A stretch of DNA of 64,000 nt. It comes from Lingula anatina. Taxonomy: Eukaryota > Animalia > Brachiopoda. The translations under genes and the position numbers were made by a program. The stretch's first letter is position 1. The number at the start of each line of letters is the position of its first letter. The notes beneath the pieces are model-generated. The model was given only the letters and a program-made list of their open reading frames with translations, did not search any database and was not told the origin of the DNA. The DNA is taken from the NCBI GenBank assembly GCA_051362555.1, contig CM120647.1, positions 18,328,651 to 18,392,650 of the forward strand. The letters run 5' to 3'. Positions 6,419 through 56,902 of the stretch are shown here, one piece after another.

Positions 6419-6476
<58 letters not shown>

Positions 6477-21044: not shown

Positions 21045-21076
<32 letters not shown>

Positions 21077-22336: not shown

Positions 22337-22406
22337 ACTACACTGAAATCGACAGGCAACAAAATCCTTTTAGAAGCAGTCTGTTCATCAAGCAAACCTT
22401 AGTTAA

Positions 22407-22786
22407 AGGGATACCAACTGTTTGTTTTGGCCAAAAAATGAATTTTCCTGTGGTAAGCAACAATTTTCCCCAAATTACCAATGCTTAAAGAATGATCAAT
22501 CCATTCTGAAATTTACACCTTTTTTTCCCCAAAAAGTTTGGTTTTTGTAATAATCTCTTCAGAGATTATTACAGAGGGTAGTCATCTATGGAGAGCTTGT
22601 GATCTGATGGAACTTGATCTGATGACAAAAACATATTTCAGAATAATTGTGATAATTAACTGCTGTTTTGGTGGTAAAAGTCAATTTATTACATTTCTAT
22701 TAGTTGTTTACAATTTATTACATTTCTATTAGTTGTTTACAATGTATTTATGTGAAATATGCATCTTAAAGAGTTGCTATGATCCC
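22407..22786 (-). mobile_element. TTAA-flanked MITE, same family as 34644-34979 and 38545-38871, reverse orientation
   Basis: TTAA|AGGGATACCAACTGTTTGTTTTGGCCAAAAAATGAATTTTCCTG is the reverse complement of the right end of the 38545 copy; ends GATCCC|TTAA. Confidence 0.75.
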
Positions 22787-33526: not shown

Positions 33527-34062
33527 GTTTCTAGCATGTAATGCAGTAAAAGTGTTTTTTTTTTCAGCAGAAATGTACTTTATTTATAATATCATAAAAT
33601 GTCACAATCTGAAGGAAGTTCGTCGTTAAAAGAAAAAAATATAATAGCATGTCATCGTCATAAGAAGAAAATATACTAAGAAAATATACTATAAGTTTGA
33701 CTTGCTTACTCAAAATAGAGACATTTTCCATAAAAACTTGTAGGTCAAAACTACAATGAAAAATGACAGAATTTGTCCATAACTAATGTGCACTTCTTTT
33801 GTAATGTTCCGTTTTACATTGACTTCAAGATAAGCAATGACCAAAATTTCACTGAAACTTTAACTTACATCTTTGAATTGTTATCTTCCCAATTAAGTTC
33901 TCACTAACTAAGAACTCCATTCAAAATTATGAGCAAGACAGTCAAGATATTTCATTACTTCTAACAAGTTGCCCTTTGGTTAAAATTCCCAGAAAAAATC
34001 TACTTTGGAAAATAGCTGTATGCCGTGTTTTATTCCCAATTAAAGAGACACAGGTGCTGTGT

Positions 34063-37000
34063 CTACTTCGCCACTACTTGTACAATGAAGGTTTCTTCTT
34101 GAGCACCGGCACTAAAATAACAATAAAACAAGGTGTTATCCTATTGTTTATAATATTAATTCTGTCAGTGTAAATGCTATATAGGAGGAAAACCGTGGTA
34201 TGAAAAACTGAGGCCAAATTTGTAATTTTGTTTTTTCTTCGCACAAGGCTTGGGATGAATTTTTCCCAATTTTGTGTTTTTCCAAGGAAGAGTTATTTTT
34301 GTATAAAGGTCATTCATTAAATATCTATCAAATATGACTAATTTTGGTAAATAAAGTATATGCCATCTAGAGTAAAGAGAAAGAGAGAGAGAGAGTGGGG
34401 GGGGAGAACTTACTTATATGATGTTATTCCATTCCTTGCTGAACCTGTAAGGGAGGATTTCTCTTCTCCAGCTACGAACGTTACCAGACCACCATCTTGC
34501 CCGTTCACATGACGACCAGCTGGACAGATGCCAGAATACTGGAAAAAACACGCATTTTGGTAAATTTCTTCCAATTCTAATATACATTACACAAAACACA
34601 TAAGTATGTATATTTACATTAAAAACAAAATACTATTTCTTAAAGGGATAATAACTCTTCGTATAAGATCTATATTTCACCATAAAATCATTGTTAACAA
34701 CTCATAGAGATATAATATATTCTGTTTTACTGCAAAAACGGCAGTTATAGTTATTATTCTGATATCTGAGCTTGTCTTTAGACCACGTGACCTCCACTGA
34801 CAGCTATACTGTTATAATCTGTTAGGAGATTATAACAAAAAAAAAAACACTTTATAGAAAAAAATCAGGGAGTAACGTTGAATGTATAAATGGATTCATT
34901 AACCATTGGTAAGTATGGGAAAATTGTTGTTTACTCCAGGAAATTTCATTTTTGGCCAAAACGAAAAGTTATTATCCCTTTAATTTGTTTGAAAACGGAG
35001 CACAGGAAACAGAATTAGTGAATACAGAAAAATGTATTTTGTTAATAATAACATTCATTATAGTTCAATAAAAATTCCAAAATGATGTTAGAAATGAATG
35101 TGCATTTGTATTGTTTCCACTTCAATATTTTATTGAAGTTCCTTTTCCAAACAAACAAGATCAATTGATTGAATAAAACATTCAGATACTAACATTTAGA
35201 ACTCATAAATCATAGAAATTCTTAATCTACTTACACTTATTTATCTGTCTTATTTTAATTTCATTTTTATCAAATTAAATGTTTTGCTTTGATAACTTAC
35301 CGGAGCATAAAAGTCGGTACCATATACCCTGCTACCACGAGTGCATCCACTTCGACACCAGACTCTGAAAATATAGTACGTTTTTAAACTCTATCTCACC
35401 TATTCTTTTTTCTTTTAAATTTCAAATAAAATCAGTACTTTTTATTGGACAAAGAGGCGTTTTTTTGTTGATATTGGGTATTTAGAATTTTTTCCTCCCA
35501 AAAGTTTTTTTTTCTGAAATATGTCAATTTTAAGCAAAATTACTGTCACTGACACCAAAATAACATCCATTTTCTGCAGTACTTTTGTTTTCTGTGTAAA
35601 TTGTCTATGATCTTATGTTTCTCTTAGATGCCAGTAAAAAAATTTAAAAAAAACAATTTTTTAAAATAATTAAATGTATAAAAAATCACCCACTGGACAA
35701 ATGCAGCAATCCCTATAAAAAAATAATAAAACACGAAGAAGAAAATAAAATGAAATAAAAAAAATACTGACCTGCAAGGTTCTGTGCCAAAACGATGCTT
35801 ACAAGTCTTTGACCAATGTGAGTAGCAGTCCAGCTCGTAAACACAACCCATGTTACCGCCACCGAGGTCTTTACACGTCTGGAAGGACTGACAACCTTCA
35901 CAACCAGCCGTGGTCTCAACGAAACTGAATGCCGACGGCCATGATCGGTGGAACCTGAGCATAAACAACATGAAATGTAATTCTTATCTTTTTTTAAGGT
36001 AATTAGTCGAATTATTTATAATTGGGGCGGTTGTTTCATTGTAAGTATTACAGTTCTGAATAAATCAAAACAAATAAATTAATAAAAAAATAAAAGACAA
36101 TATAGAGACAAGATAAATAAAATAAAAAAATAAATAAATATGATAACGCCTACCCGTGTGAAGTGATAGAGTTTCTGACGGTTCCTGCAAACGAGACTTG
36201 ATTGCCTTCGCCTTTCGCTGTCACTACCCCTCCTTCGGATACTTCCGGTATGGCGTGGGCTGCTGCTCGGCAGACGGCAGAATTCTGGGTGTGAAAGTTT
36301 AAACATTTCAGGTGCATTTTGACTTTGCAATCCATAAATGAATTTCACATTTTTAAAACCATTTAATAATATGGCTGAAATATTAGTATAACAGTTGGTC
36401 TGGCCTTATCTGTGAGCGTAAATCAAAAACCAGAACCACAGCAAAAAATGTCAATCATTGATAATTTTGCAAACGGCTTTTGATATGATGTACATAGGAG
36501 ATTAATGCAAAGATGGTCCAGTTTTCAGAAAAATTATCATTTTCAATATTATTATCAATTCATTAATTTTGTTTTTGAAGTTGGTCTTACGCACACTGCT
36601 TGGTTTTAAATATTCTTCGTGAAATGGAAAACGGGCTAAATTGATACAATGTCCTTGCATGGTTGCCATAAAAGTTCAGATTTATAAGCCAAGTTTACCA
36701 GCAGTACTACAAAAGGTAGAGTTGGCGAAGCACATGTGAAATAACTTACATTGTGGTAAATGTCCGTTCCCCAAATGCTTCCTCCACGCGCACATCCTGC
36801 TCGGCAATTCACTCTGAATAAAAATTATTAATATTTGCTTACTTCAAGATAGAATTTACATTTAATTGATTTTTGTTGGTTTCATATGGTCATCAACAGT
36901 TAAATCCACAATTCAAGTTTGTGAACTCCATTTCATTCATAATCAAATACTAATTTGTTTGTTATTCATACTTCCTTTTCCATCATATTTTCCACCAAGG

Positions 37001-37618
37001 GGACTATATTTTGCCTTTGTTAATTTGTTGGTTTGCTAGTTATCCTGAAAATTATGGGCCAATATTGATTCAATTTTCGAGATCGATCTACACTGGGATA
37101 ACCTAGAACAGTTCAGAATTCAATGATTAATCACGAAATAATATGAGAATTGAGGTGCCTTCTTTTTAAGTGTATTTCAAATGTTCCTTACTTGCACTCA
37201 TCGTTACCAAATCGATGTTCGCATGTGTCGGCCCACTTAATGTAGCAATCCAGGTCCAGAGCGCATCCCAACTGTCCCTCAGTGACGTTAACACAGGTCT
37301 GGTATGGTTCACACTTAATGCCGGCAGCGGCGCATTCGTCGTTGGCCTCGGCAAAGCTGAATGATTCTGGATAACGCCTATGGTATCTGTCCACAGAATA
37401 ATTAAGTTGTTAAGACAGATTGATTACACCACTGATCGTTACAAAATGGATCGTGACTGTCAGTGTCAAGAAGAAAAATTTAACCATGATATCAGGTTCA
37501 TTCGTTCGTTCATGCTTTCCGTCTCCCTTTGTCTCTCTATGCGAAAAACCTCCTGGTAAATATACAGGGGCGGATCCAGGATTATTAGAAGGGGGGCCCG
37601 TAGATGCGAGGACGACCC

Positions 37619-37650
<32 letters not shown>

Positions 37651-40488
37651 ACACACACACCTACCCTCCAGTAGAAACTCCATTCCTCACAGTTCCAGAA
37701 AATGCACGTTGTTCGCCTTGAGAAAGCGCCGTTACAACGCCGCCTTTTTGGATGCCCCCCATGCTGTGAACAGCAGCCCGGCAAACGGCGGAATTCTGTA
37801 GGACAAAGAATAGAAATAGTGTGTTAATGTGTGATTGTGACGATGTTAATAATCCTAGACGTTTACACGGTTGCGAATATGTGTGCATAGCACGTGTGTA
37901 TGCTAATGCAAGCCCGTTCGCGGGCGCGTAGTCCTTTTAAATTTGCTTAAACATTGCTTACGTTGTAGAAAAAAAAACACCCTGTTTAGTGTAGGCGCAT
38001 TGGTTAAGATATGTGACTGTGTGTAACAAAAGAACGAAATATTTTCAATGTAGTGAATTCTAGGTATAGACTTCCACAATGAAAAAGTAATTTTAAATTA
38101 ATAGTTCTACTTGTTCATTGTAACTTACATTATGGTACATTGCAGAACCCCAGACGCCACCGCCACGTGCACAACCCGACCGACACTGCACCCTGAAAAT
38201 CACAAAACATTGTTATTTGATAGATGAGTTAACCGAAATATTGCAGTCTGATCGAATTGCTCTTTCTCCAAAAACTAAGAAAGAGAGGGAGTTTTTTTGT
38301 GGATGATTAAAAGTTATAAGGGAACTCCTCTTAATTATCTTTATATACTTATCAAATACTAATTTCTTTTATTCATTATTCCTTTTCCATCATTTCTTCC
38401 ACCACGTGGATTATGTTTTTGCTTTTGTTAATTTGTTGGTTTGCTAGTTACCTTAAAACTACGAGTCGATTTTGATTAAGTTTTCAGGATAGGACTGAAA
38501 TGGGGATAATCTACACGTGCAATCGATCAGACTTCATTGATTAAAGGGATAATAACTTTTCGTATGAGATCTATATTTCACAATAAATATATTGTAAACA
38601 ACTCTAGAAAAACATAATATATTCTTTTTTGCCACAAAAACGGCAGTTGTAGCAACAAATCTGAAATATATGCTTGCCATCGGACCACGTGACCTCCATT
38701 GTCTCTGTTAAGAGATTATTACCAAAAAAAAACTTTTTAGAAAAAAAAAAAAAAAACAGGGACTAACTTTGAACGTAGAAATGGATTCATTAACCACTGG
38801 TAAATATGAGAAAATTGCTGTTTACACCAGGAAAATTCATTTTTTGGCCAAAATGAACAGTTGGTATCCTTTTAATCACGAAATAATCCTAGAAATGAGG
38901 TGCCTTGGCGGAGGTCTCTGCACCTCGGAGTTCTTCTTAAGTTTATTTAAAATTTTCCTTACTTGCATTCGTCGTTCCCAAATCGATGTTTACATGTGTC
39001 GGCCCATTTTACGTGGCAATCAAGGTCCAGAGCGCATCCCAACTGGCCCTCAGTGACGTTAACACAGGTCTGGTATGGCTCACACTTAATACCGGCAGCG
39101 GCGCATGCGTCATTGGCCTCGGCAAAGCTGAATGATTCTGCATGACGCCTATGGTATCTGTCCACAGAATAATAAAGTTTTTAGGACAGATTGATTACAA
39201 CAATGACGTTACAAAATGGATCAAGGCTGTCATAAAAGAATATTTCTAACGATAATATATAGGGTTAATTTGTTCGTGATGCCGTCCGAACCCCTCTCTA
39301 TGCAAAAAACCTCCTGGCAAATATGGTGCAATCCGGTAAAGATCTGATAAAACCAACTGCACATAAATGCTCTTAAATATGAGTAATACTTTTTAAAAAA
39401 TTATATCTTCTTACCTTTATTTTATAAGATCATAAGACTACCCGACTTATTTTCGGGTACAGATGTAGGGGAGATTTTGGGGCGATGGTTAGTTGGAGTG
39501 AAATCAAACCCTCTTCCGAAATCATGGATCTATCCCAGGTCTTGAATAAACTTTGTCTCAAATCACTCTGTAATTTATAAGCAATAATATACCTACCCTC
39601 CAGAGGAAACTCCATTCCTCACAGTGCCAGCAAAAGTAAGTTGTTCTCCTTGAGAAAGCGCCGTTACAACGCCGCCATTTTGGATGCTCCCTATGCTGTG
39701 GACAGCAGCCCGGCAAACGGAGGAATGCTGTAGGTCAGAGAATAGAAATAGTTTGTATTAACATATTAAAATATGTGTGAATGTGTCAGTGCTAAAAACC
39801 TATTTGTTTACACGGTTGAGAATATGTATGTGCCTTTGCTTGTATTCATGCTAATGGAAGCCAGTGCTTGGGCCCATTTTTGATTTAATATTGTTTACGT
39901 CGTAGGAAAAAACACCATGTCTATTGTAGACCTACACTTTCTTGATAATTTATGTGGCTGTGTAAAAAAATAACAAAAATATTTTTAATGTGGTGAGTTT
40001 TAGGTATAGGCTTTGACAATTAAAAAAGGTACTCTAAAATTGGCAGTCCTACTTGTTAATTGTAACTTACATTATGGTACATTGCAGATCCCCAGACGCT
40101 ACCGCCACGTGCACAACCCGGGCGACACTGCACACTAAAATTATTACATAAAAAATTCTAACTAAACAGATTAATTAATCGAAATATTGCATTCTGGACA
40201 GATTGCCGTGTTTCTCAATCGCTTTTAGAAAGAGGGGGGAGTTTTCGTTAATGATTCAAAGTGAAAAGTAAACTCCCCATAATTAAATATAATAACATAA
40301 ATTGAGAGAGAGAGAGGTCGCATTCAGAACAGTGGACTAACTAGTCCGCGGGTCAAATATGGCGACCCGCTTAAAAGCTTGCCGTCTAATCCCCTAATAG
40401 ACACTGAACAGGTTCCCCGTGGGGAAGTATTCAAGTGGGTCGTTCATATTTGACCCTCGGACTAGTTAGTCCACTGTTCTGAATGTGG

Positions 40489-40540
<52 letters not shown>

Positions 40541-43500
40541 TTTTGGAGAAGGACATGTGCTCTATCAACTCACCTGCACGGCTCATCTCCAAAACGGTGT
40601 TTACAGGTTTCGGCCCAGCGGACGTGGCAATCCAGAGCAATCACACAGCCCAACTTCCCCTCGCTAACCTCCACACAGGACTGGTAGGGTGCGCACTTGA
40701 TTCCAGCATCAGCGCATGCCTTGCCCGCCTCGGCAAAGCTGAACGACTTGGGCCAACGTCGATGATATCTGAGAATGGATAAATAAATATGTTGATTTTC
40801 CTTCGTGTGAACTATTTACCCTTCTTTTTTGCTCGTTATCTGTTCATGTATGACACTTTTAACTTCATTTTGACCGATTTCTTGTTCTAAATTTTGTTTA
40901 TGTAGATATCTTCAAGTTTGTTTCGCTATTTAATGAAACGTGAATCCACAAAATACACTTTTCCCTGTTTGAATATTTGCACCAACTTCATAAAGCAATA
41001 GTCTAAACCAATACATTTTCACTTCAAAAGGCATAAAATTTAAAAAGAAGACATAAAACCTACCCGCCTGAGCCGACGCCATTTCTCTCTATCCCTGGGA
41101 AGTTGAGTTGTTCACCTTGAGGCAGAGCTGTTACGACGCCGCCTTCTGACATGGTAGAGATAGCATGGACAGCAGCTCGGCAAACGGACGAGGTCTGGAG
41201 GTAAATATGACAAATTTAAAGAAACGATATTTATCAGCAGATCACAGAGAATTCTCTTCACTAGATATTCATTGAAATTTCTCCTATGCGATAGATTTCG
41301 CATGTCTGTATTGTTAAACTGCGATGACTTCTGCACAAAAATAGCGTCATCATCCAACTGGTCTCTGTTATGAGTAACAAATTTAATCATCTTACAAAAT
41401 ATTAAGAATAAATTTTGTTTGCACACGTGCGCACTTTTGTGTGTGTGTGTGTGAGCGCATGTGCGTGTACGTGTGGGAGAGTGACAAGAAAATTTTCACT
41501 GTATGCATATGTATGGAGCGTTAATATTCATGTTTGTGTGCGTGTACAGCAAAAAAACTCACGTTAAAGTAAACGTCAGCGCCGACAACACCTCCTCCAC
41601 GACTACAACCCTCTGGGCACATCACCCTATAAGTAAAATAATGAAACTTAAATGAAAATTTATGAAAAACGAAATTTAATCAGATCCCCATGATGGATTT
41701 TTCAACTTAGGCCTACTTGATATGAATTAATATTTTGATGTTTCAAAATGTTACGGTGTCTATAATCATCTGTTATTATTTAATTATTTTTGTAGCTATT
41801 GTTTTTTCCTTTTTTAATACCACTGATGTTAAGTGCATCAAGATTTTCATCACTTAAGGGTTTAAATGGCGGGAATCACGTAAATTTCCATTAAATCCAC
41901 GTTCACTGAAAGCACGTATTTAGTTAATGTGACCTGATTCTGGGGACATCCTATGGAGAAACCGTAAATAATTTGTCCTAAAATGCAGTGACATACTTGC
42001 AAGCTTCAGCTCCAAAATTATGTTCACAGATCTGGCCCCAATTACTGTAACAATCAGTTGCCAAGGCACAGGCAAGTTTTCCGTCTCCGACATCGGCGCA
42101 AGTTTGGAAAGGCTCGCATTTGAGGCCAGCCTCTGCGCATGCGCTGGTGGTCTCCAGGAAACGGAAGGTTTCTCCCCATCCTCTGTGATTTCTGGAAATG
42201 GTTCAATTGAAATGCGTTTATTAAACTTATCTTGAAGGTGGGCGAATTTTTGGTATCAAATATAGAGCTTGGCTAATTGAAAATTTTTAATTGACTTTAT
42301 AGATATTGAAATATTGATACAACTTATTTTGAAGAGAATTCTACGGTCCTGGAAATGAATTGATATACCGGCGTTTAAGAGCACAGCAGGTGAATTATTT
42401 GTCCAAAATCAATTTCATTTTATAACTAAGAACCGAATTAAACCTAAACATACATTATTTCAAAGAGGAGAGAGAGAGAGAGAGAAACGAACCTTCCAGA
42501 GCCGGCGCCATTTCTAACTAGGCCAGCGAGGTAGTTTGTCGCCCCTTGGGGCACCGCCGTCACTACGCCGCCCTCGTTCTGGCTAGCAATGGCGTGCACC
42601 GCGGCCCGGCAAACAGCTGATCCCTACAGAAAAACAATAATATTCACTTTTATAGAACTTATTATTGTATGGATGCATATCAACAGACGGGCAGACAGTC
42701 AGACAGGCAAACAGACAGAGAAACGGACTACCAGCGGAACATGCGTAAACATTTAAACGCATGCGTGCATAAATTAGAACAAATATTACCAGATTAAAAA
42801 AGTATGGCATACTTTTTGACAGGTGGGGTACGAGTTCATGTAGTCTTATAAATACAGAGGTTAAGAAAACTCACATTGTGGTACACATCTGCTCCATATA
42901 TGCCACCGCCTCTAGAGCACCCTGCTTGGCACAACACTCTGAAATAAAGCAAACATATTTGTTTTATATTTTAACAATCAAATAGATTTTTTAAAAATCA
43001 AAATTACTTACATCGCCATGGTTAGCCAGTTGTGACAAAAATTGGTACTTCTACCAGAGGCACAGATTTTTTTTTTTTTTACTAAATACATTTACGTTGT
43101 TTCTTATGCTATCTATTCATAACCAGTTTAAAATTGACGCCATGAACTAGTTGAGTCCCTATTAGTGAGTAAAAAGCTGTGAAAGTGGCCAGAGAGTACG
43201 TGTTACTAGTAACAGCTCAGTGCCAAAGTGTTCCACGGCAGACTCACTTGCATTCTCCTTGTCCGAAGTGATACTTGCAGGTGTCTGTCCACTTGGCATA
43301 ACAATCTAGCTGCATAGCGCAGCCCAGTTTGCCGTCTTTGTCTTCAGCACAGGTCTGGAAAGGTTCGCACTTAATACCGGCAGCGTCACAGGCGCTCGCG
43401 GTTTCGGCAAAACTGAAGGTTTCGGGCCATCTTCTGTGGAACCTGTCGAAACATAAATATTTTAGATTAGTTTAAATCATGGCGATTGTTAATAAATGAA

Positions 43501-46345
43501 GTGATTATGTATACAATTATCTTTAAGTCTATATCTTGGCATCATCCATGAATAAATCAGTAGCATACACAAAAGGAAATATCGGTAGGCATATTCTCTG
43601 AATAGCCTGAGAGGCTGTCGTTTTCACGTCAACAATATTAAAAGAGTAGTATTATATTTTTTAGTGTTTTTATGAGGTTATAGTGTATAGCCAACAATAC
43701 TTTCATCCAATTCTACAGAAACAAAATGGTATTTGCAATAAAAAACGTGATGATTATTCATCTGGATGGATCGTACATAAAAGGAAAAATAGATGGCAAA
43801 TTTCTCGCAGAAACTACCCTATTTCGTCTTACCATTCTAGTGGCTTTAATACGCCATTTTTGCGATTTTCGCCATTTTCCACAAGTTCCAATAATGTTCA
43901 GGTTGCAATAATTAATTATATTAATAGCAACGTTCTTGTGGAAAGAAAAGGGGGGGCTGAAAAGCGACCTACCTCCCAGAGCTAACGCCATTTTTAGCCA
44001 TCCCGGACAAATAAAGTTGTTCGCCTTGAGGAAGTGCGGTCACAACACCGCCTTCTTTCATGTCTGCGATTGCATGTATGGCAGCACGGCAGACAGCAGA
44101 ATTCTGTAATGAAAGAAATGCAATGAATTGTGAAAGTTACCTTTTTTAATTGTTCTTATTCGGTACGACAAGGAGAAATTTACAAAGTGCGATCGATGCA
44201 ACAAACGCAAAAATCGTCTCCAGAAACACACTCGAAGCAATTTAAATAGTACTTGGGGTACATCAACTATCTGCCACGTCACATATTTTCTAATTGTTAC
44301 GAAATTTAATGAAAGTGCACTTTTGCAACAACTACAAGATCTCTGGTATAGAGTAGGACAGGCCTTAAGTTTTCAATGAAACAAACACCACTTACATTGT
44401 GATAAACATCCGTTCCCCAAACGCCTCCGCCGCGTGTGCATCCTGAGGGACATTTCACTCTGTCAGAAAGAAACGAACATAATCAACATCTTAGTTTTGC
44501 TGCGAAATTCAGATCGAAAATATGTTCTAAAAATCTTAGGCCTGAATTTCAGTCTAATTTGGGCCATGACACCATCGTTCTACGAAGACCTATCAAACTC
44601 TGGGACTCTTGCTGAATGCAATCAGAGGAACCATGGACAAAATTTCGAAATTTTATCCTTGGATTAACAGAATAACACGCCTCATCCTAACGTCGAGTTA
44701 AATACAGGAAACTGTTTATCACACGATTAAGTTGGAAGTAAGAGGAATCGTGTTAAAAAGAGTATCAAAAAATCTGCAAATGAATATTTCGAAATCAGTA
44801 TTACTATTATACAACTAAACCACCTTCGATTATACTTATGAACAAAGCATGTCATTTGAGTATTAAATTCAAAATATGTTCTGAAATCAAAATAACATCT
44901 TACGGGCAAGGTTTATCGCCGTAAAGATGTTTGCAGGTATCAGCCCATTTCACCCAACAATCCAACTGCATGGCGCACACAGGAGGTTCTTTCTCTCCCA
45001 TTTCAACACACGTCTCGTGAGGGGCGCATGTCAAGCCGGCAGCCGCGCAAGCGCTAGTTGTCTCCACGAAAGCGAAGGATTCATCCCATTTTCTGTGGAA
45101 GCTGTAAAGAAAAGATTTATTTATTTATTTATTCAATCATTTATATATTTATAAAATTAGATGAAATAAAATTAATTACAGTGTTATTTAAAAATGGAAT
45201 AAAGCCTGTGGCCATATTTCAATAAAGGCTAAGGAACAGCATTTTCAATAATAACAAACCATTCTGGCCTAACTCCTTGGGAACTGTTATTAAGTGCTAC
45301 AAATTATTAAAATTCACACATTTGGCGTTTTAAATACGAATTTTAAAAACAGAAGTTGCTCTTTCCACGTGAACCTGTACTCAACAAAAAGAGGAAGAAC
45401 TCCAAACGTACGGGCTTTTTCCATCAACAGCATGTAATGCAAATGAGATATAAATTCATGAAATAAAGAAAATCCTGAAACATAAAAGACATTTTGAACG
45501 TAGAACCTATTAATATAAAATATAAAATAAATGACTTACTTTCCGGAACTGACGTCGTTTCTAACAGAGCCAGGGAAAGTGAGCCGTCCTCCTTGAGCCG
45601 TTGCCGTGACAAGGCCCCCAGTTTTCATTCCTGAGATCGCATGGACAGCTGCTCTACACACTGCCGAGGTCTAGACATTGGAAACAAAATTAACAGTTCT
45701 TTTTTCTGATTCTTTATTGATTATTAATAAACAGAAGCGCGTTTTCATTAGTATAATAGCATTTACCAGCGATATCAAAAAGGAAAAGGCATAACTGTTT
45801 TTTTTTCTCTTTTCCTTTTTTTTCGGTTAAAATTACATATGTATTTACACATTCAGTTCAGGAGACAAATACAGGTTCTTTAATACTATTACTGGGACTG
45901 TAGAGTTGAAACGAAGGCGATTTTTCCCTCTGTGACCAGTCAAAGTCCTTGTGATAATTCCAGTAAAAGCTGATAAATATACAGACACCATGCCGCAGTG
46001 CAATAAAAATTACAATAAAAAATTGTGATAAGGACATTACGTTCTGTGCGTCGTCTGCGTACTTCCAGTAAAAGGTGGCAAATATACAGACAACATGCAG
46101 CGATGCAATATAATATGTTCTAGAAATTAATAAATGAAATGGAAAATGTGTTAATTAATAAAAGCATCTTAACAAACTATCTCAACTTGATTTATATATT
46201 TATCTTCATAAAAATAAAAACGTATCCTTACATTGGTGTAGACGTCACTTCCGTGGACCGAGCCTCCTTTGACACACCCAGCTGGACACTGAACTCTGGA
46301 GGGAGAAATTAACAGTCTTAACTGGGAGAATATCTTTTATATTTA

Positions 46346-46390
<45 letters not shown>

Positions 46391-47418
46391 AGTGTGTGTG
46401 TGTGAATATTATCATCAGGTAGAACTACTAGACTTAGGGATACGATAGATCAGACAGACTTCGCCTTTCTTGACTATAGAACTGGAGCAACCGAGGCTAT
46501 AAAAAAAGCTATTATGATGCGAATGGGAAATCCTACATGCATCGTTGAAAAACAGGTCAGGAGTTTTTTAGGCGAGGCAATGGAAACTATTCCTACCCAT
46601 ATGGCTCTAAAATGAGGGGACCAGTCGATCCAAACCTGGTGAAATGAATTCATTACTACGCAAGTTCCAGAACTTAGTTTATAAATGTTCACAGCAATAA
46701 ATATAGCGGAAATAGTTTTTCAAACATTTAATAAGGCTTCTTCCAATAAAACGTGTTTAGGACGACGTTCATCCACGTGATTATCACGGAAATCTTAAGA
46801 AAAAAACTTTGTAATAACGCTTTTGCCACGTGGTAGTCGCAACTGCCACGTGGTAGTCATGTGACCTTCACGTGGCATGCTTGGTTCGTTTGAGTGGATT
46901 TTAAAACATGTTAACTAGGGAATAAGGCTTTACATGACTGAGGTTGACACACTAATTGTCAAGGTGGGCAATGAATTACTAAAAAGGAAAGACCAGTTTT
47001 GCTGTTGCTTGAACGAAGATATTTACCTGCAGTTATCCTCTCCATGCTGAAATTTGCAAGTGTCCGACCAACGGGAGTAGCAGTCGACGGCCATGACACA
47101 GCTCTTTTTCCCATCCTCGTGTACGTGACAGGTTTGGTGAGGTTCGCAATTGAGTCCGGCCTCCTTGCAAGCGCTGGTGGCTTCCGCGAAGCTGAAAGTT
47201 TCTGGCCAACGCTTGAACATCCTGTTTAAAAAATAGGGATGATTTTTAGTTTAATAGAGGTGCGCAAAAGGTGGTCATAACAATTGCTATGTTTTGCATA
47301 GATAACTAGATGGTGTTGATGGGTAGCCATTGCATATCCCCGCACTTCCTCGTATTGTAAAGAGTAGCTCTCCCTCAGGGACCCCATTCCCGTGATACCT
47401 ATTACAATGCCTGGGTCC

Positions 47419-47457
<39 letters not shown>

Positions 47458-50400
47458 GGTATTTCAAATTTTCAACTAAACTAAACTAATACAAACCTTC
47501 CTGTGGTCACTTCATTTCTGACAGTGGAGGCAAAGTGCACCTGTTCTCCCTGAGGAAGTGCTGTTACCACGCCTCCTTCATTGAGATCAGGTACTGCATG
47601 GACAGCAGCACGACACACGGCGGACACCTACAGAGGACAGATGAGAATGTCGTTCTCATGATATTTTAAATTTTGATTTAAATTTTTAAGCCCTTAATTT
47701 TACTGGTTATTTTCTTTCAAAATTTGTCAATTTAAAACACAAAGAAAAAATTTGGTAACTTACTTTTCAAAACGTTACGAACCAATTTTTTTTTTTTATG
47801 AAAATGTACTTTGGCGGATTTTGTAACTCAGATTTCTCAAAACTGTTGAGCACTCATCATATGCTAGGGTCAGCACTTTTCCAGTTTTCTAGACTAGCTT
47901 TCATGTGCCAAAAAGGCAAATTTTTAAATATTTGGAACCCTAACGTAAAAATATTTTTAAAAGCATTTAAAAAAACTTACATTGCTATAAATGTCAGTTC
48001 CCCATACACCTCCTCCGCTTTTACATCCGGAAGGGCAAATGACTCTGAAAAAGTACAGATTTTGTTATTAACGTCTTCTTTCTTTTACATCGGGCCATAG
48101 CCTTGGTCACATTTAAAACACATTCTCATGTTGATTTTTTTTCCTTTATAGATAATATAGAGAACATTAAATCTCATACTGGACTATAGATCGCGGTTTA
48201 AAGGTGCACACCGCGGGATTTCCTGATATAAAGAAATTTTAGGGGTTCTCTTCAAGCGTCTGAAAATCCCCCAGCCATATATGTGTTCTGTAAAGCTTCT
48301 TATATTTCTTATTTTAGACGCTTATGACTATCAAACCCTTTAAATAAAAGTTCATCAGAAGCGCACCTAGTGCTGTTATTATTTTTTCAGCATTCTCAGG
48401 TAGCCATTGCCAGCTTGTAACGTTTGTCTTATACAAAGTGCCGCGTTACAAACAAGGCAATGCGCGTGGCGGCAGATGTCTTTCTATTTGACCAGCCAGT
48501 CATTTAAAACATAGGTGTTTAATTAAATTGGAACAACAAATCTAAGTGCAGGATCGGGTCAAGCAAAAAATGGAAAATTCATTTTGGCGAAAAAAATCCC
48601 GTGGAGAGCATCTTTAACCTGTAACAACTTAGTCCTTAGTCTTAATCCTACACACCTGCAGGGACCGTCGCCATAGTGAGATTTACACGTTATGCCCCAG
48701 TATATTCTGCAGTCCAGCTGCAACACACAGCCCAGTTTTCCGTCACCGACATCTTGGCAGGTTTGTTCAGGGCCACAGGGTGTGCCTGCAGTTGCGCATG
48801 CGCTGGTGGTCTCCACGAAACTGAAGGTCTCCGGTTTCGGCTTGTAATACCTGAATTATGATGAGTGAAAATGAGTAGAGAATTTAAGAGTTTAATCAAC
48901 ACCACTGATATTGATATTTATTATTTCTATTAATTTCACCATCATTAAAAATATCATAAAGGGGCATAATTAATACTTGTTACTGCGTCGTAATATTTAT
49001 TTTAAAATGTAACATTTACATATATAAGCCCTTTAATATTTCTGTAGCAAAACTTTTTTACTTAAAAAATCTTCAGTTAAATATTTCTCAAAAAGTAATG
49101 ACAAAAAAGGGACAAAGACGCATGGGGCGAATGGTTTTGACGGAAAGCGCAAGGCAATAACAATTTCAATTCTTATGATCTACAACACTGCATATACATC
49201 ATTAATGATGAAATAAAAGGTCAATACATACGCTCCTGAACCAATTTCGTTCCTGACGGTGCCGGCGAAGCCTTGTTGTTGTCCTTGACTGAGTACATTG
49301 ACAACGCCGCCATTTTTCATGTCTGGAATGGCGTGCGCCGCAGCACGACAAACTGCCGAGTTCTGGAACATATATTTTGTTCAGTAAAAAAGTTGATTGA
49401 CCAAGAGATTAAACTAAATTAATTGATTAATTAATGGTAAATTAAACGTTTTATTTAATTCTTAATTTATTAGGCACACATTTATTGAATAGACATTGTA
49501 TTGCCCATACGTGTTTATAACACTGACAACAGTTAGTAATCGTCAGTAATCTTATGTATTGGCCAATGACTTACGCTTGTGTAGATATCAGAGCCATAAA
49601 TTCCTCCTCCGTTTTTACAACCCTCAGGGCATAATACTCTGAAAAGAATACATCAGGAAAGATGATTGATCTTGAAGGATATGTAGACTAAAAAAACTTT
49701 AAAAAAAAACATAACTTTGGGGAATTTTCAAACGCAGACAGCATACCTTTGAGAACAGCACAACAGAGTTTATCTATTCAGTCATTTACACTGAAACCCT
49801 CACCTGCACTTTTCCTGACCGTAGCGTACTTTACAGCTGTCCTCCCACGTCTGTCTGCAGTCCAAGGACAGGACACAGCCAAACTGACCGTCACCAAGAT
49901 CCTGACAGGTCTCGAACGCCTCACATCCTCCGCATGCCTCAGAAGAACGCGCGATGCTGAAGCTTTGATCTATGTCACCGTAATGACTTAACAAATAGAA
50001 CAAATTCGGTTATACAAAATTTGAAATGACTCAAACAGCGCAGACCTCCCCCCCCCCCCCCCAAAAAAAAAAAGAAAGACGATGTAATCCATCGGGAATA
50101 TTGGGATACCCGAGTTCAGTTTAAACTTGTAATCATTTCTAACCCTGTATACTCTAAAATCGATTCAATAAAATTTATGAAGAACTGTTTGAGAAATTAT
50201 ATCCATTTACAAACAGGCAAACCATCGCCGTTGAAAATGTACCCTCTTTCGTTGGGTTGGTAATGAAAAAAAAAAGAAGGAAAAGATTTGTATATGTGAA
50301 ACACCCACCCCATAGTACCAACACCATTCCTGTGTGTTCCAGCTAGTGAAGCCTGTTCTCCCTGAGCGACGACGGTGACGATTCCACCCTTGGCGAGATC

Positions 50401-53400
50401 GGCATTGGAGTGAACGGCTGCACGGCAAATAGAAGATGCCTATGATGAAAGAAATGATACGATTAAAGACATTGATAGCAAAAAAAGATAATGAGGAAAA
50501 GACACGAATGCTTGGCTGGTTTTTGTTGTACTTATCTTAGGCCTCATCCCCAATGACACCGTCGGTCCACCTTGATCGATCCAACTCTACGAGGACTCTT
50601 GCTGAATGCAATCAGTTGAACAGATTAACACGCCTCCTCCTGGCGTTAGGTGGAGTACAGAAAAGCTGGTGATTACACGAGTATGTGGGAAATAAGGGGG
50701 AGCTGTCATTCAGTTAAGCTGATTGCACTTAACGAAGAGCTGGGTCGAGCCACGTAGACCGACGGTGTCTATTCGAACGTGGTCTTAGGCTGTATTCTCA
50801 GAGGTTTTAGATCGATCTATCCCCGCGGGGAGTCTCACTAGATTACTGTCAGATAATCCGACTTAAATGTCCGTCCCGCCTACTACAAGCTGTAAGGGGG
50901 TAATTAACTTTCGTGTCCGCTCGGCTGACAGCTATTTAGCGTGAACCCCCAGGGAGTTAGGTCGATCTAAAGTAGATCGATCTAATCTCTGGAAATGGGG
51001 TCTTACAGATTACTGATCCCGATTGTAGACGTGTGAAAGTATGAAACCTAAAAATGACTGCTTTCTTTTGTTTTCTTTTGTGTGATCTTGAATGGAATTC
51101 GGTTAATCTGTCATGAAATAAATTACTCACAGTGCGGTATATATCAGTCCCCCACACCGAACTACCTCTCGTACACCCGGCTGGACACATCACACTAGAT
51201 TAAGAAAATATAACAAAAATGAGGTCCTACACTCTTTGCGAGAGTTCAGTGCTTGCAAATTACACCTAGGTTATGAGAAAAATTAAATCTAATACTGGAT
51301 GTTACGACGCAAATAACACCTAGATTCAATTAACACAGTACATACTCCACGCTTTTTCTACATGAATATTTTATGTAATTAATTTATTCATTTACTGCAA
51401 TAATTTCGATAATATTTTGGTACAGATGCGCAATGACATAATTCTACGTATTATACGTACAGGCATGTTCCGTTCCTGTTGTAATCCTCACAAGAGTTGT
51501 CCCAATTCGCATTGCAGTCAAGCGGAAGTACACACGCCTTTTTGCCCTCCCCGACGTCGGTGCAGATTTCTCCAAGTTGACAGCCACCGCATTCATTCTC
51601 TTCCTCCAGAAAGGCAAAGGACGTCGATCTGGCTCCGGTGCTGAAGGATAGAAACAGGTTTGGTATATTATGTAATTTGTTTTTAGCTTCTAACAAGAAA
51701 ATTTCTCGATTTCTATACTGTTTTGTAAAGTTCGAAACTCAGGTTAGTCGGTGCCTGTTTTAATAGCATCATTTGTTATATATAGTGGCGCAATAGCTGA
51801 TGGTGCACTGAAAGTTATTAACAGAATCTGTTATTATGCTGTATATTACCTTAAACTTCACGTGATTTAGCACGTGTTTGGAATAAGATTTGGTGGAAAC
51901 GCTGGTCTCGTTACATTATGCATTTAACGGGTGTTTGAAAATAGGATTTTCATTACTTAATGGAACCTTAGGCAGGGAGTTGGAATGGGTTTGAAAGCAC
52001 ATTTTTTGGTGGGAAAATGTCCGCCCTGAGTCAAGATTTGATTTACATACTATGCCATTTCTAAAGTTTGGTCAAATAAGGGCATATGCAGATTCACCCC
52101 CCCCCCCCCAAAAAAAAAAAAAAAAAAATATGCCGGGTACAGGCCAGTTAATGTACGTAAACTGTGACCTGGTACAAAACATTATGTGATAATACAAAGA
52201 AGTAATTATCTATACTTCCTTGGTATATGCAACCGCTTGTTTTTTCCAACCAAGAATTATATGTTTCATTGAAACGGATATTTACCTAAATTTAAGAGGA
52301 AAAGACTTATATTCATTTCCCTTTAAATGCTTGTTATTTCCAAGCCATGATGGTACGTTACACCGTGTCCACCATGTTTAAATCAGACCCTTTTCATGCC
52401 AATCAAATTACACCATTAAAACGGGATTGAACACTATTTAAGGGAAGGTAAATTATCCATTTCACATGAAATGCCCATAATTGCTGTCCTCTGGTATAAG
52501 ACATGTAGGTGGTGATGGTCCGCCTGATTGCAACATTTAGTTAGGCGGGTGGTGAATGGTTTCGGTAGTAGGAGATGATGACTTATTATGTAAATTACAG
52601 AAAATAAGAACTGTGTTTGGTTATAGAGTCATATATTGGTAGTAATACGGATGGGGTGCGATCTTTCTGATCTCAAAAGGACGGGAAAACGGCCGGACTG
52701 ACTGACTGATGGAGAGAAAAAAAGAATGAATGAAGAAAGGAAGATTGACAGACAAACAAACAGAAAAGTAAATTGGTGATCTTGTTACGTTGAGAACTTA
52801 AAAACATCACAATTTAAAGATAAAGCAAGTAATTTCCGAAAATTGGGGTCAATTTGTTGATAAGTGGGAGACGCGGGTGATGATGGAAGCAATAATTTGT
52901 CCAGAAATCTTCTCATTGAATGCCAGTATACGGGTTTATGACATGATGAATTGTAGAAGAAGCCGTTAATTGTTGAAACAGATGTAGTTGAAACAGGATA
53001 CAATACAATACAGCCTACGCCATGAAAATTTCTCATCCACAAAAGAGGATCAATTCCTCAGAAAATATTTTGAAATCATTATGCTTTTCACGAACTCCCG
53101 TTCACATCTGTGAGATATGGAGAAAACGAAACTCAAAATTCCAAATTCACTTACGATTCTGAGCTGATCCCGTTCAGTGAGCTTCCAATGAAAAAACGTT
53201 TGTCCTCCGTACCCATAGCTGCGACAAAACCACCATCGGTGCCTGTGGCGTGTACATAGGCTCGGCAGATGGCGGAGTCCTGAGAAAAAAGAATAATATG
53301 GTTTAATTAGCCAATTCAATATGGAGGAAGACTGGGATGATCTGATTCACCACGTGGGACCCAATTGGTGGCGGATAGATCAAGACAGAAACAGGTGGTT

Positions 53401-56400
53401 TAGCTCCAAGGAGGGTTTCCTCAGTGCGCGGTTCTTCCTTTATTGATGTATTGATTGATTGATAATACAGATGAAGGGTCATCTATTGTCATAAAAATAA
53501 AATGGCAAAAAATAAAAAGAAATATTTTAAATGGAAGAAACTGTTGGGGAATTATATAACGAAAAGGATGTGACTGTGAAAATATTTCAGACAAGCTGTT
53601 TCGACACAATGGCATGGAATGTGTTACACAAGGATAAACAAAATGTGGCGAGTGTGTTAGTTGTGCCAGTGATGTGTTAGTTGTGCCAGTGATGTGTTAG
53701 TTGTGCCAGTGGTGTGTTAGTTGTGCCAGTGGTGTGTTAGTTGTGCCAGTGGTGTGTTAGTTGTGCCAGTGATGTGTTAGTTGTGCCAGTGGTGTGTTAG
53801 TTGTGCCAGTGGTGTGTTAGTTGTGCCAGTGGTGTGTTAGTTGTGCCAGTGATGTGTTAGTTGTGACAACGCTGATTGCGTTTGGTGTGATAGAATGAAA
53901 TGGTTGTATAGAACTTCAGACTACTTACGCCAGTGTAGGTCCCCGTACCCCGGATTCTTTCTCCCAGATTGCATCCCTTAGGGCACATCACACTGAATGG
54001 CAAATGATTTGACAAAATTTAATGATAATTATTCAACAATTTCAAAGACATTTTTGTTTGTAAATTTTTAGTCTTTACAATGACGGAATCCAACCTTCAT
54101 CCTTGTCTCAGGATTTTCACAGTCTTCGGTCCTAAGTTTAGAACAGCTTGTTATTAAATTGTCCTAAATATACCAAAGTCCATTTCTGTAACCCTTGCAT
54201 GCCCTGGCATTGACAGTCTGTGTGGTTACGATTGTAAACATATTCCTATGAACATCAAATGAACAAAATGACGATGTCCCTTTACTAAGTGTGCAAAATC
54301 AGTGTATAAACCCCTGACAAGCCATATTAACCCTTAAAATAATTAAGCATATGGCAGACAGGTTCAACGATCTCACTTTTTGGGAGAGTTCAATGTTTAA
54401 TTATTTTATAACCTATAAAATCAGATTGTCGAACTCCTTGATTAAGGACGAAAGCTTTTAAGGCAGCTCGTAGGCTACTTAAATGCAGCAACACACTTTT
54501 AAAATAAAAATAATAACTAAATATACGAACGCTTCGAACCTTATTGAATGTAAAACAGAATGCAACTTTCTGCACGTAAAAATGAACACCATGTGAATTA
54601 ATTGTAAATATCACATCGTATATTGCAATCTACATCGTATTAACTTCGTGTAAAGCTCTACCTACTTGCACAAGCTGCTGGGGAACAATTCTCCGCACAC
54701 TTCCTCCCACTTGGTGAAGCAATCAGCAGGTAACGAACATTGCTCTTCGCACCTATGAAGAGAAAACGTACAGTTTAGAATACATATGTTGCTCATTATG
54801 TTCTCCATGATGATTGACAACACTTTGACGCGTTACGTTCTTTCATTTTGTAATCCGTAGCTTTATCAGACTACTTGTTTATTCGTTCTACTTCATTCCT
54901 TCGTTCATTCCTGTACTAATCAATTAGTTTTTTACTAATCATGATTTGAACATTTATCTGTGCATTCCTTTATTTTATTGAATTTAATGTCAGTTAATTT
55001 ATTGAGTTTTATGTCAATTTGATACTTTTTTTACAAACGACGTTCATATTCCTGAAGACTGGCATAAGAAAATGTCGAATTAAAACACACATACACACAC
55101 ACTCTAACACACACAAACACACTCAAGGTATTGCATGACCATCTCTGTGTGGTGGGATCAACTATATCCGGAAACCATCGGTTGTCTTTGTAACCACAAA
55201 TGAGACACAGAATTAGCCGAAGTTTACGGAAAAGGTGCGACCGATTTTTTCACAAGAATGACCCAACGTAGATGAATATCTTTGTTTCTATTTTACTTTC
55301 ATAAGGCTGGAGAACTCAAACTCTGGCTTATCGTAGAGCTGTTATCTAGGCGCTGATTCATTTTTAATACGGATAAAATGTCAGCAGGCAACAAGTGACA
55401 GTGACCCCCTATACTCACTACCTTGTTCAGTTCCTCCCCAAAAAACATGCATATGCACAACACTGGTGAATGTACAGAGCTACATGTATGTTTTTGTAAT
55501 TCAAAACCAAATGTTGAATTTCGTGTGTATCCGTTGTCAATAAGGGGGTTTGAAACATTATATGCTGGGCACAGGCGAGAGCGATGAAAGCCATGCACGC
55601 GAAATAACGTCTTTGGTAAGCTCTGAAATCATGCCCCGGTTTGACGAAAGTCAGGGCCCATGTAACCATTACATTCACATTGGTTAGGGTTAACATGACG
55701 CAAGTTGGTCATTTTTTAGACGGAGCTTACCCGTACAAATTAATGGAAACCGGAGTTCGTATTTCTCAGTCTCAGTCACGTCACTCCGACCTAAATGTCT
55801 TTATTACTATTTATATCTGCTTAATTTCATTTTACCATTTTACTTTACTTAATTTTACTTCATCTAAGCAAATTTACTTTACTTAACTTGTATTGCCCAC
55901 CCTGGCCACACCGCTAAATGAGGCAAAGATGAACTGATCAATGTGTAATGATTAAAACTGGATTTAAATATCAACGATCATACAGAGACTAACTTACATG
56001 TATTTTCAGTCAACAGGCAGTCGGATTGATTTTACCGACAAAAACGACAATGTCAACAGCAGAAACAATTATAAACTGTAACAATGTGGACAGGTGGCAA
56101 ATATTCATTAGGTAACAGGAGTTGCTGACCGTTACGATGCTGATCGTTATTGTTCCAGTTTTTAACCAGCCCGCCCCTCCGCTGTTGTTTTCGCACCGGT
56201 TTGTCGAGTACGGAGTCCTCAAGATCACAGGTCTGTGATGTCTTAGATGGAAGTTAGTTCTGAGATAAAATCTTTGATACGATCTTTCCTACGCTTTGGT
56301 TAACTTGGTCGCTTCCGCCTAAGACGGGAGTTCCAAGGTGTGTATAATTTGCTTCATCATGATTATTAATCAACTAATGAGGTTTTGCAAAATTTGACTA

Positions 56401-56902
56401 ACACTTTCGCCTGTGTAATCCTTTACATATGTGCGTGATGCGTGGCTATGATTAAACCTGGTACGGGCAAAAAATGTCCTCACTCAAATAAATTGTTTTA
56501 AAATTAATTCTTAATACGTTGAAGATGTTACAGAATAATATTTTCGTATTTATTTAAATGCGCAACGTCAACTTAACCATTCTCATCCATAAAAAGGCGT
56601 GGATTCTAAATGCGTGCAACAAATTTATTTTGTCGTTTTCGTGGTCTTTACCGTTTATATATATATTTTTTCATTTTATAATTTCCCTTTTTATTCTTAA
56701 GAACACGGCGAGGCTTAATGATTTTTTTCTTCATATAAACTAATATTAAACCAATATTAAAAAGTAACTGCGCTTCAGTAAAAATACCTGTCTTGCTTTT
56801 ATAAATATGCTACCGTCTCTTTGTAAATAGTTTTACTTCATCTACTTACCTGGCTCGCAAAATATACACAGCGACGAGCAAAGCGTACGCTATCGCTTTC
56901 AT
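34063..56902 (-). CDS. Secreted poly-LCCL protein: signal peptide, then 12 LCCL domains separated by 11 four-Cys FOLN/EGF-like linkers; ~1541 aa, 38 coding exons
   Basis: Signal exon 56902-56850 (MKAIAYALLVAVYILRA); exon 54752-54666. A/B/C cassettes: 53992-53929/53279-53155/51640-51461; 51194-51131/50439-50309/49986-49804; 49638-49575/49362-49232/48850-48656; 48044-47981/47627-47497/47221-47027; 46295-46232/45670-45540/45101-44904; 44459-44396/44103-43973/43442-43248; 42938-42875/42623-42493/42191-41997; 41626-41563/41194-41064/40768-40574; 40134-40071/39727-39597/39157-38963; 38192-38129/37795-37665/37386-37192; 36813-36750/36284-36154/35954-35772; 35364-35301/34538-34414. Last exon 34111-34063 (TAG). 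All introns GT-AG; 4626 nt with no internal stops. The repeat VxCPxGCxxGGGVWGTDxY-xSAVCRAAVH..GGVV..G..RNGV.S..RW..SFSF matches the LCCL consensus. Confidence 0.9.
34644..34979 (+). mobile_element. TTAA-flanked MITE (Kolobok-type)
   Basis: TTAA|AGGGATAATAACT ... AGTTATTATCCCT|TTAA, a perfect 13-bp TIR. Confidence 0.88.
36940..40280 (-). repeat. Recent tandem duplication of LCCL cassettes 9 and 10, introns included
   Basis: 36940-38340 aligns by eye with 38350-40280 across both exons and introns. Confidence 0.85.
38545..38871 (+). mobile_element. TTAA-flanked MITE, same family as 34644-34979
   Basis: TTAA|AGGGATAATAACT...GGTATCCTT|TTAA. The paralogous intron shows the empty site GATTAATCACGAAATAAT (~37125-37142). 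Confidence 0.9.
40316..40490. mobile_element. 175-bp MITE with ~53-bp TIRs (PIF/Harbinger-like), inserted in (GA)n
   Basis: GGTCGCATTCAGAACAGTGGACTAACTAGTCCGCGGGTCAAATATG is mirrored by CATATTTGACCCTCGGACTAGTTAGTCCACTGTTCTGAATGTGGCC. Confidence 0.85.
44540..44740 (+). mobile_element. Degenerate relative of the 50540-50784 MITE
   Basis: Shares ATGACACC.TCG, GGACTCTTGCTGAATGCAATCAG and AACAG..TAACACGCCTC.TCCT. Confidence 0.6.
48202..48613. mobile_element. TTAA-flanked MITE (Kolobok-type)
   Basis: TTAA|AGGTGCACACCGCGGGATTT ... AAATCCCGTGGAGAGCATCT|TTAA, an imperfect ~20-bp TIR. Confidence 0.65.
50540..50784. mobile_element. PIF/Harbinger-like MITE with TTA TSD
   Basis: TTA|GGCCTCATCCCCAATGACACCGTCGGTCCAC ... 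GTAGACCGACGGTGTCTATTCGAACGTGGTC|TTA. Confidence 0.7.
50788..51002. mobile_element. Second PIF/Harbinger-like MITE abutting the first, TTA TSD
   Basis: TTA|GGCTGTATTCTCAGAGGTTTTAGATCGATCTA ... TAGATCGATCTAATCTCTGGAAATGGGGTC|TTA. Confidence 0.7.
53652..53867 (+). repeat. 20-bp minisatellite, about 10.5 copies
   Basis: G(G/A)TGTGTTAGTTGTGCCAGT repeated. Confidence 0.95.

Follow-up and report, generated by a model that had tools for sequence, protein, structure and literature searches.

A twelve-fold LCCL array with cysteine-rich spacers is encoded by an expressed 38-exon gene of the brachiopod Lingula anatina

Extracellular proteins with LCCL domains are known in several architectures. Cochlin and Akhirin are secreted and combine one LCCL domain, whose fold is represented by entry 1jbi of the Protein Data Bank (PDB), with two vWA domains. 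CRISPLD1 and CRISPLD2 (Lgl1) are secreted as well and carry a CAP/SCP domain together with two tandem LCCL domains of six cysteines. The CCp/LAP proteins of Plasmodium and other apicomplexans and Limulus factor C are mosaics in which one to four LCCL domains occur with SRCR, lectin, sushi or protease domains. Here, we describe a gene within 64,000 nucleotides (nt) of the genome of the brachiopod Lingula anatina (GenBank assembly GCA_051362555.1, contig CM120647.1, positions 18,328,651 to 18,392,650 of the forward strand). This whole stretch is referred to as the window and numbered from its first letter. The gene lies on the minus strand and encodes twelve LCCL domains separated by cysteine-rich spacers.

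Six-frame translation revealed three kinds of coding block recurring on the minus strand between 34 and 55 kb, and a splice-site scan found one consistent acceptor and donor per block, with GT..AG at all 37 introns. The gene was thereby rebuilt independently as 38 exons, with its ATG at 56902 and its stop codon at 34063. The joined exons comprise 4626 nt and encode 1541 amino acids (aa), the single stop being terminal. A preliminary description, made from the letters of the window, had given 38 exons, a stop-free frame of 4626 nt and 12 repeats, and the rebuild agreed with it exactly. Exon 1 is followed by twelve A/B/C exon triplets of identical phase and by a last exon (34111-34063). Exon A has 180-198 nt (87 nt in unit 1) and phase 2-2, exon B 64 nt and phase 2-0, and exon C 125-131 nt and phase 0-2. 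Pairwise identity of the 12 repeat units is 34-76%, and LCCL1 (aa 27-121, unit 1) is the most divergent repeat. The features of the gene are as follows (UTR, untranslated region):

56850..57105, minus strand: exon 1; about 200 nt of 5′ UTR, ATG at 56902, predicted signal peptide (aa 1-17/18)
54666-54752, 53929-53992, 53155-53279, minus strand: unit 1, exons 2-4; two-cysteine stub and LCCL1
51461-51640, 51131-51194, 50309-50439, minus strand: unit 2, exons 5-7; spacer 1 (short first loop) and LCCL2
49804-49986 (AAG acceptor), 49575-49638, 49232-49362, minus strand: unit 3, exons 8-10; spacer 2 (short first loop) and LCCL3
48656-48850, 47981-48044, 47497-47627, minus strand: unit 4, exons 11-13; spacer 3 and LCCL4
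47027-47221, 46232-46295, 45540-45670, minus strand: unit 5, exons 14-16; spacer 4 and LCCL5; introns 13 and 14 in RNA
44904-45101, 44396-44459, 43973-44103, minus strand: unit 6, exons 17-19; spacer 5 and LCCL6; introns 17 and 18 in RNA
43248-43442, 42875-42938, 42493-42623, minus strand: unit 7, exons 20-22; spacer 6 and LCCL7; introns 20 and 21 in RNA
41997-42191, 41563-41626, 41064-41194, minus strand: unit 8, exons 23-25; spacer 7 and LCCL8; introns 24 and 25 in RNA
40574-40768, 40071-40134, 39597-39727, minus strand: unit 9, exons 26-28; spacer 8 and LCCL9; introns 27 and 28 in RNA
38963-39157, 38129-38192, 37665-37795, minus strand: unit 10, exons 29-31; spacer 9 and LCCL10; introns 29 and 30 in RNA
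37192-37386, 36750-36813, 36154-36284, minus strand: unit 11, exons 32-34; spacer 10 and LCCL11; introns 32 and 33 in RNA
35772-35954, 35301-35364, 34414-34538, minus strand: unit 12, exons 35-37; spacer 11 (short first loop) and LCCL12, divergent; introns 36 and 37 in RNA
33750..34111, minus strand: exon 38; last LCCL12 strand, TAG ending at 34063, 3′ UTR, AATAAA at 34034-34029; 3′ limit approximate

For evidence on the RNA level, seven runs of the same species with coded labels were mapped (X1-X4 and X7-X9, X1-X3 being one study). Junction counts refer to the joints listed, with 73 further joints beyond these for the region of introns 14-37. Spliced junctions were found for at least 28 of the 37 introns, including all of introns 1-13 in X1-X3 (105-763 reads each) and at least 15 of introns 14-37. 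The spliced reads of X1-X3 match the sense strand of the gene, and such sense-strand reads across introns exclude a chance origin of the exon chain. Splicing of intron 1 was covered by 403, 517 and 281 reads in X1, X2 and X3, and the unusual AAG acceptor of exon 8 by 170, 196 and 105 reads, respectively. The 5′ ends of RNA molecules lie at 57105-57112, while at the other end many molecules terminate at 33971, and the read depth of X1, still 464 at 34070, is down to 27 at 33756. The twelve-LCCL gene is confirmed as real, spliced and expressed.

The transcript is not covered end to end by any long read, 9 of the 37 junctions lie outside the joints listed, and RefSeq contains an 11-repeat isoform as well as a second locus of 687 aa, all of which would be compatible with several small genes, or a repeat inflated by the assembly, having been taken as one gene. 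We consider such an artefact extremely unlikely. There is one 5′ end and one signal peptide, the between-unit junctions are present in RNA (introns 4, 7, 10, 13, 25, 28 and 37), the repeats share only the modest identity given above, and the RefSeq model, likewise 1541 aa long, departs from the rebuilt protein by 5 substitutions but by no insertion or deletion. The proposal of a single gene instead of several small ones has thus held, given the spliced between-unit junctions and the one 5′ end.

The same gene had been called hidden, which it is not. When a profile of the 11 spacer exons was compared with 1915 longer candidates, the sole match was Lingula anatina LOC106170475, a RefSeq protein of 1541 aa labelled 'uncharacterized' and present in UniRef. 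Its RefSeq/UniRef cluster holds five 1541-aa accessions, corresponding to four distinct sequences that differ at three positions only, and a 1411-aa form without one 130-aa unit (11 repeats). In addition, a near-identical partial copy of 687 aa is recorded at LOC106152716; paralogs are known here from protein databases alone. By tblastn, no extra coding exons were found in the window except one intronic match of 22 residues at 36%. Mutually exclusive exons were considered as the source of the equal-length forms and rejected. Because these forms show single-residue differences and the window has no unused exon, we read them as probable alleles of the older assembly. No account of the LOC106170475 protein or of animal poly-LCCL arrays was found among the papers listed by the literature searches, with subscription journals and bioRxiv supplements outside the search. 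In the accessible text of PMC4453069, LCCL only names a shell protein with a CAP domain, and PMC10672452 mentions it only as part of factor C. LOC106170475 is annotated yet unstudied.

The twelve LCCL domains of the preliminary description were recovered by Pfam PF03815, which matches 12 stretches with 548.9 bits (cut-off 22.6) and an E-value of 7.8e-169. Each domain has 95-99 aa and six cysteines, whereas most relatives found have four. An AlphaFold2 model of LCCL6-spacer-LCCL7 reached a mean predicted local distance difference test (pLDDT) of 93.8 and a predicted template modelling score of 0.85. In a Foldseek search, the LCCL model fits cochlin 1jbi (E 1.4e-5, template modelling score 0.80 by target length, root mean square deviation 1.8 Å), with Rxt3-type chains next. 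In the model, the final LCCL strand continues into a spacer helix and then by a hairpin into the next LCCL domain, which suggests a fixed orientation between adjacent domains. Pfam side matches to Rxt3, DUF2671, HEAT_2, UPF0179 and Toxin_24 were discarded, Rxt3 being an LCCL-like fold and the others lying below their cut-offs. A search of the ESM Atlas with aa 763-1022 or 764-799 gave no usable match, which carries no weight either way.

The most hydrophobic window of 19 residues is formed by residues 1-19 (mean 1.41), and all internal windows stay at or below 1.15. Therefore, no transmembrane segment or hydrophobic glycosylphosphatidylinositol (GPI) tail is evident in the hydropathy scan of the whole protein. 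Residues 1-19 are the only strongly hydrophobic window and, as had been proposed, likely represent an N-terminal signal peptide of a secreted protein. The 118 cysteines equal 12 × 6 plus 11 × 4 plus two behind the signal region; since this number is even, all could pair within the chain and no covalent polymer with interchain bonds would be required. Pfam and hydropathy revealed no catalytic, signalling or anchoring domain. A CAP/SCP domain had no Pfam match at E ≤ 1 and a vWA domain no Pfam match, while the twelve units occupy the entire chain.

Compared with the known systems, the Lingula protein shares the LCCL fold and likely secretion with cochlin and Akhirin. It differs from them by its twelve LCCL domains, an extra cysteine pair per domain, the cysteine-rich spacers and the lack of vWA. 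With CRISPLD1/2 it has tandem, probably secreted LCCL domains in common, but it contains 12 of them without CAP and with spacers that are likely EGF-derived. The apicomplexan CCp/LAP proteins and factor C gave weak matches only. Relatives were searched with aa 362-1402, which matched 17 of 7992 candidates of comparable length and 84 of 7995 shorter candidates; these searches are word-dependent and do not imply absence elsewhere. Tandem LCCL domains were found in Branchiostoma (7-11), the frogs Pelobates and Engystomops (6), Clavelina (4), one further record (7) and bacteria (3-5). The earlier statement that LCCL occurs as one to a few copies is thereby contradicted, since amphioxus, frogs and the further record have 6-11 domains in a row. 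The chordate proteins (Branchiostoma XP_066301432, XP_035688934 and CAH1238318; Pelobates XP_063284115; Engystomops XP_071984131; Clavelina LOC143453158) resemble the Lingula protein in consisting almost entirely of LCCL domains (4-11), and most of them have a hydrophobic stretch at the N-terminus. They are distinguished by mostly four-cysteine LCCL domains, linkers rich in Pro/Glu in amphioxus, an identity of 27-29% and a separate position in the tree. In the relatives, LCCL domains mostly have four cysteines and linkers 0-1 cysteine. A cysteine-rich spacer in every gap occurs only in two Lingula genes among the listed proteins (at least three LCCL domains, plus selected others). The combination of twelve six-cysteine LCCL domains with putative truncated-EGF spacers was thus found in Lingula only, while LCCL domains and poly-LCCL arrays themselves are already known elsewhere.

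The chordate poly-LCCL group, with which the further record of seven domains is placed, is apparently undescribed. Some of its members are labelled CRISPLD1, yet have no CAP match, and Clavelina LOC143453158 has a C-terminal hydrophobic segment. Bacterial proteins, among them those of Siccirubricoccus and Roseomonas, combine 4-5 tandem LCCL domains with a C-terminal OmpA-type domain.

The 11 spacers between the LCCL domains have 28-33 aa and four cysteines each, with the spacing C-x6-C-x5-C-x9-C in 7 of 11, x6-x5-x10 in one and x2-x5-x9 in three. The preliminary description had correctly noted a shorter first loop in three linkers, but its main pattern of x5-x5-x9 has to be replaced by x6-x5-x9. 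The fourth spacer cysteine is separated from the first LCCL cysteine by five residues. Pfam gave no FOLN or EGF match for five full spacer exons, the short unit-1 exon or the whole protein. A profile of exon A, compared with 1.84 billion representatives, found two proteins at E ≤ 0.001, namely the protein described here and a paralog from Lingula (XP_013400311/XP_013388032). The paralog has only two units, each with a six-cysteine spacer (x4-x5-x9-x1-x8) and a six-cysteine LCCL domain at the same distance of five residues. The pattern x4-x5-x9-x1-x8 is that of EGF, and FOLN is an EGF module without its last loop. Alignment of both genes by hhalign gave a probability of 96.5 (E 8.9e-10), a link that rests on the whole exon A profile including its LCCL flanks, and left a gap of 11 residues in this gene, which is the length of x-C5-x8-C6. 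As the spacer lacks exactly the last 11 residues of the paralog's spacer, it is likely an EGF module minus its last loop, i.e. FOLN-like. The six-cysteine EGF ending C-x-C-x8-C is absent from the four-cysteine spacers here, whereas the paralog has all six cysteines. In exon 2 (54666-54752), the two-cysteine stub ahead of LCCL1 occupies the place of the paralog's last EGF loop, and unit 1 may keep the module half lost by the other spacers.

Direct comparisons of the spacer are less clear. A spacer-only hidden Markov model found no other protein of the set above 5 bits, with the paralog among those missed, which weighs against an EGF origin. The four cysteines of follistatin FS1 are in register with those of the spacer at a non-significant E of 9.5. 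In Foldseek, the spacer model (pLDDT 67) had follistatin at ranks 1-3, 5 and 6 (E 0.53-1.4) and hevin, Fstl1, BM-40 and SPARC lower, all matches being non-significant (E 0.5-9.5). The paralog has no Pfam EGF match, and its spacer matched the EGF of DLK1 non-significantly (E 5.6). In contrast to FOLN proteins, in which a Kazal module follows, the spacer leads into an LCCL domain and its first loop is a predicted helix. The designation of the linkers as FOLN/EGF-like thus stands by way of the full six-cysteine spacer of the paralog and is weak by sequence and fold, with no match to Pfam FOLN.

According to the accessible parts of PMC4595640, EGF shuffling was frequent in the Lingula lineage and Lingula shell proteins are EGF-rich, which would suit a matrix protein of the phosphate shell. 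Such a role is very unlikely here. The terms LCCL and PF03815 and the gene accessions are absent, by term search, from the 2026 Lingula shell-proteome supplement (PMC13425148; 1,126 mentions of XP_0134-type identifiers), and LCCL is likewise absent from the 2015 genome supplement.

The history of the array is still visible in the DNA. Exons 27/28/29 and 30/31/32 are 92/89/91% identical, and introns 26/29, 27/30, 28/31 and 29/32 share stretches of 70-89% identity. Hence, the latest duplication copied a B-C-A cassette with phase-2 introns at both ends. The RefSeq form of 1411 aa is shorter by one such 130-aa step. These comparisons show an array that, to judge from its exons and introns, expanded by duplication of three-exon cassettes inside the gene. 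Units 9 and 10 differ by 0.15 nonsynonymous (dN) versus 0.65 synonymous substitutions per site (dS), and most older pairs are near or at dS saturation; by this measure, the repeats are under purifying selection. For a tree, 92 LCCL domains from 20 of 120 collected proteins were used (95 columns, midpoint root), leaving out isoforms and most bacterial matches, CRISPLD and cochlin. In the unrooted tree, the 12 repeats lie on one side of a branch with 99/92 support, apart from the chordate repeats. The paralog adjoins them at 84/86, and the chordate arrays cluster elsewhere at 94/90. The six-cysteine LCCL 12-mer with its likely truncated-EGF spacers appears to have been built in the Lingula lineage.

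Transcript levels differed strongly between the sample sets. The 14 listed junctions sum to 4520 reads in X1 (12.4 M records) versus 0 in X4, 12 in X7 and 30 in X9, and the junctions of introns 1-13 to 4502, 5266 and 2984 reads in X1, X2 and X3 versus 7 in X8; the reads of X7-X9 show numerous mismatches to the window, which may depress the counts of these runs. The gene is abundant in one sample set (3 of 7 runs) and nearly silent in the others. Such on/off expression would fit a stage- or gonad-specific gene and thus a protein of reproduction or of the larva, with a role in the egg coat, in gamete adhesion or on the larval surface, and LCCL proteins of Plasmodium act in sexual stages, as stated in excerpts of PMC10892792. 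This explanation is nevertheless improbable, since 9 of the 10 listed coding differences in X1-X3 are synonymous, without a sign of fast change, and the Pfam search revealed no ZP or vitelline-type domain. Fast change is common in gamete-recognition proteins.

With respect to function, we tentatively favour, at somewhat less than even probability, an abundant, sample-restricted and likely secreted multivalent agglutinin, by which bacteria or other particles would be cross-linked within mucus or body fluid. The predicted signal peptide would route the 1541-aa chain outside the cell without a membrane anchor, and the fixed domain pose would give a stiff, protease-resistant string of beads. Each LCCL domain would bind microbial surfaces weakly, as may be expected from other LCCL proteins, and twelve in a row would supply the avidity to clump cells. 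Given the lack of catalytic, signalling and anchoring domains, repetition itself may be the design. A protein of twelve LCCL domains only, probably secreted and abundant, would most simply be an avidity device, and multivalent binding is a reasonable assumption. Precedents come from other LCCL proteins: CRISPLD2/Lgl1 binds lipid A and the released LCCL domain of cochlin limits bacterial spread (both in passages of the review PMC10892792), and an Akhirin LCCL peptide binds E. coli and reduces colony formation with unchanged growth (available sections of PMC12839204). Of the link of LCCL domains to lipopolysaccharide (LPS) or sulfated glycans drawn in the preliminary description, the sulfated-glycan part is weak, since no glycosaminoglycan binding is reported for the isolated cochlin LCCL domain in the accessible text of PMC9987951.

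This last result also weighs against the agglutinin, as do the possible depression of the X7-X9 counts and several further points. With coded runs, the expression contrast is not attributable to tissue or infection. Compared with 253 other LCCL domains, the core Cys, Gly, Tyr, Ser, His and Asn are kept across the 12 repeats and the Trp of the last strand in 6 of them, but several conserved surface residues are mostly lost. The Asp of the motif Y-T-x-D-S is present in 82% of the other domains vs 1 of 12 here, its Thr in 79% vs 3 of 12, and the Gly of H-A-G in 84% vs none of 12. The weight of the Asp loss is tempered by the cochlin LCCL domain, which is likewise without it. In LCCL4-11 (8 of 12; aa 447-1358), Y-T-x-D-S is changed to Y-x-N-x-S and thereby contains an N-x-S glycosylation sequon, and sequons at this place could cover or alter a binding site. 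The net charge (K+R-D-E) is -19, with units from -6 to +4, and an acidic chain does not favour simple charge binding to LPS.

The same observations lead to a close rival, a structural glycoprotein forming a stiff, N-glycosylated, disulfide-rich scaffold (cuticle, periostracum, pedicle coat, burrow lining or adhesive), in which the LCCL domains would bind matrix or one another instead of microbes. It would account for the recurrence of a sequon at one position in 8 of the 12 repeats, the loss of conserved surface residues, the predicted rigid packing of the domains and the high expression in a single sample set. Moreover, cochlin is an abundant matrix protein (parts of PMC10892792), and a transcript of a flatworm adhesive organ carries an LCCL domain (excerpt of PMC6745481). 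Against the scaffold, the chain offers, for the building of a polymer, no unpaired cysteine and no collagen, vWD, chitin-binding or Ser/Thr-rich mucin segment. Owing to the altered surface motif, the regular sequons and the acidic charge, we regard the scaffold as possible rather than probable next to the agglutinin.

Brachiopods, amphioxus and tunicates are suspension feeders, and the frogs have filter-feeding tadpoles. Poly-LCCL proteins may thus have arisen more than once in mucus-using suspension feeders as particle- or bacteria-catching strands of feeding mucus, which we consider doubtful. In the word-limited searches, every named animal with at least four tandem LCCL domains among the matches fits this habit. 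No bivalve was among these matches, which speaks against it.

Several repeats of the window are covered by RNA reads. In intron 3, a 20-bp tandem repeat (53652-53865, 10.7 copies) collects strand-biased RNA reads with recurring mismatches, and because of these properties the reads probably come from another transcribed copy. Dispersed repeats at 34640-34984, 38540-38880, 50800-51005 and 60400-61000 attract many RNA reads matching at 90-95%. Three of them sit in introns 36, 29 and 6, and introns 29 and 36 share one element that is also found at 22403-22714. Outside the LCCL gene, the plus strand contains a multi-exon gene with MBT/Tudor-knot, Tudor and PHD exons (794-15086), which we take to resemble PHF20/PHF20L1. 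The minus strand contains a multi-exon WD40 gene with an acidic exon of 374 codons (16525-21715), presumably similar to FBXW5. A 146-bp satellite forms two arrays, at 12873-14588 (11.8 copies, inside the PHF20-like gene) and 63036-63896 (5.9 copies).

The gene cleanly documents how a repeat protein may come about, namely by loss of the final loop of an EGF-type spacer, followed by tandem copying of the LCCL-spacer cassette; traces of the most recent copying persist in the introns. If the protein is a scaffold only, it would be a lineage-specific matrix protein of modest interest. LCCL is an old domain without an agreed ligand, which the avidity of a natural 12-mer could help to identify. If the clumping of microbes proves true, a multivalent effector would be added to the little-known defence or feeding of brachiopods, and it would point to the poly-LCCL genes of chordates.

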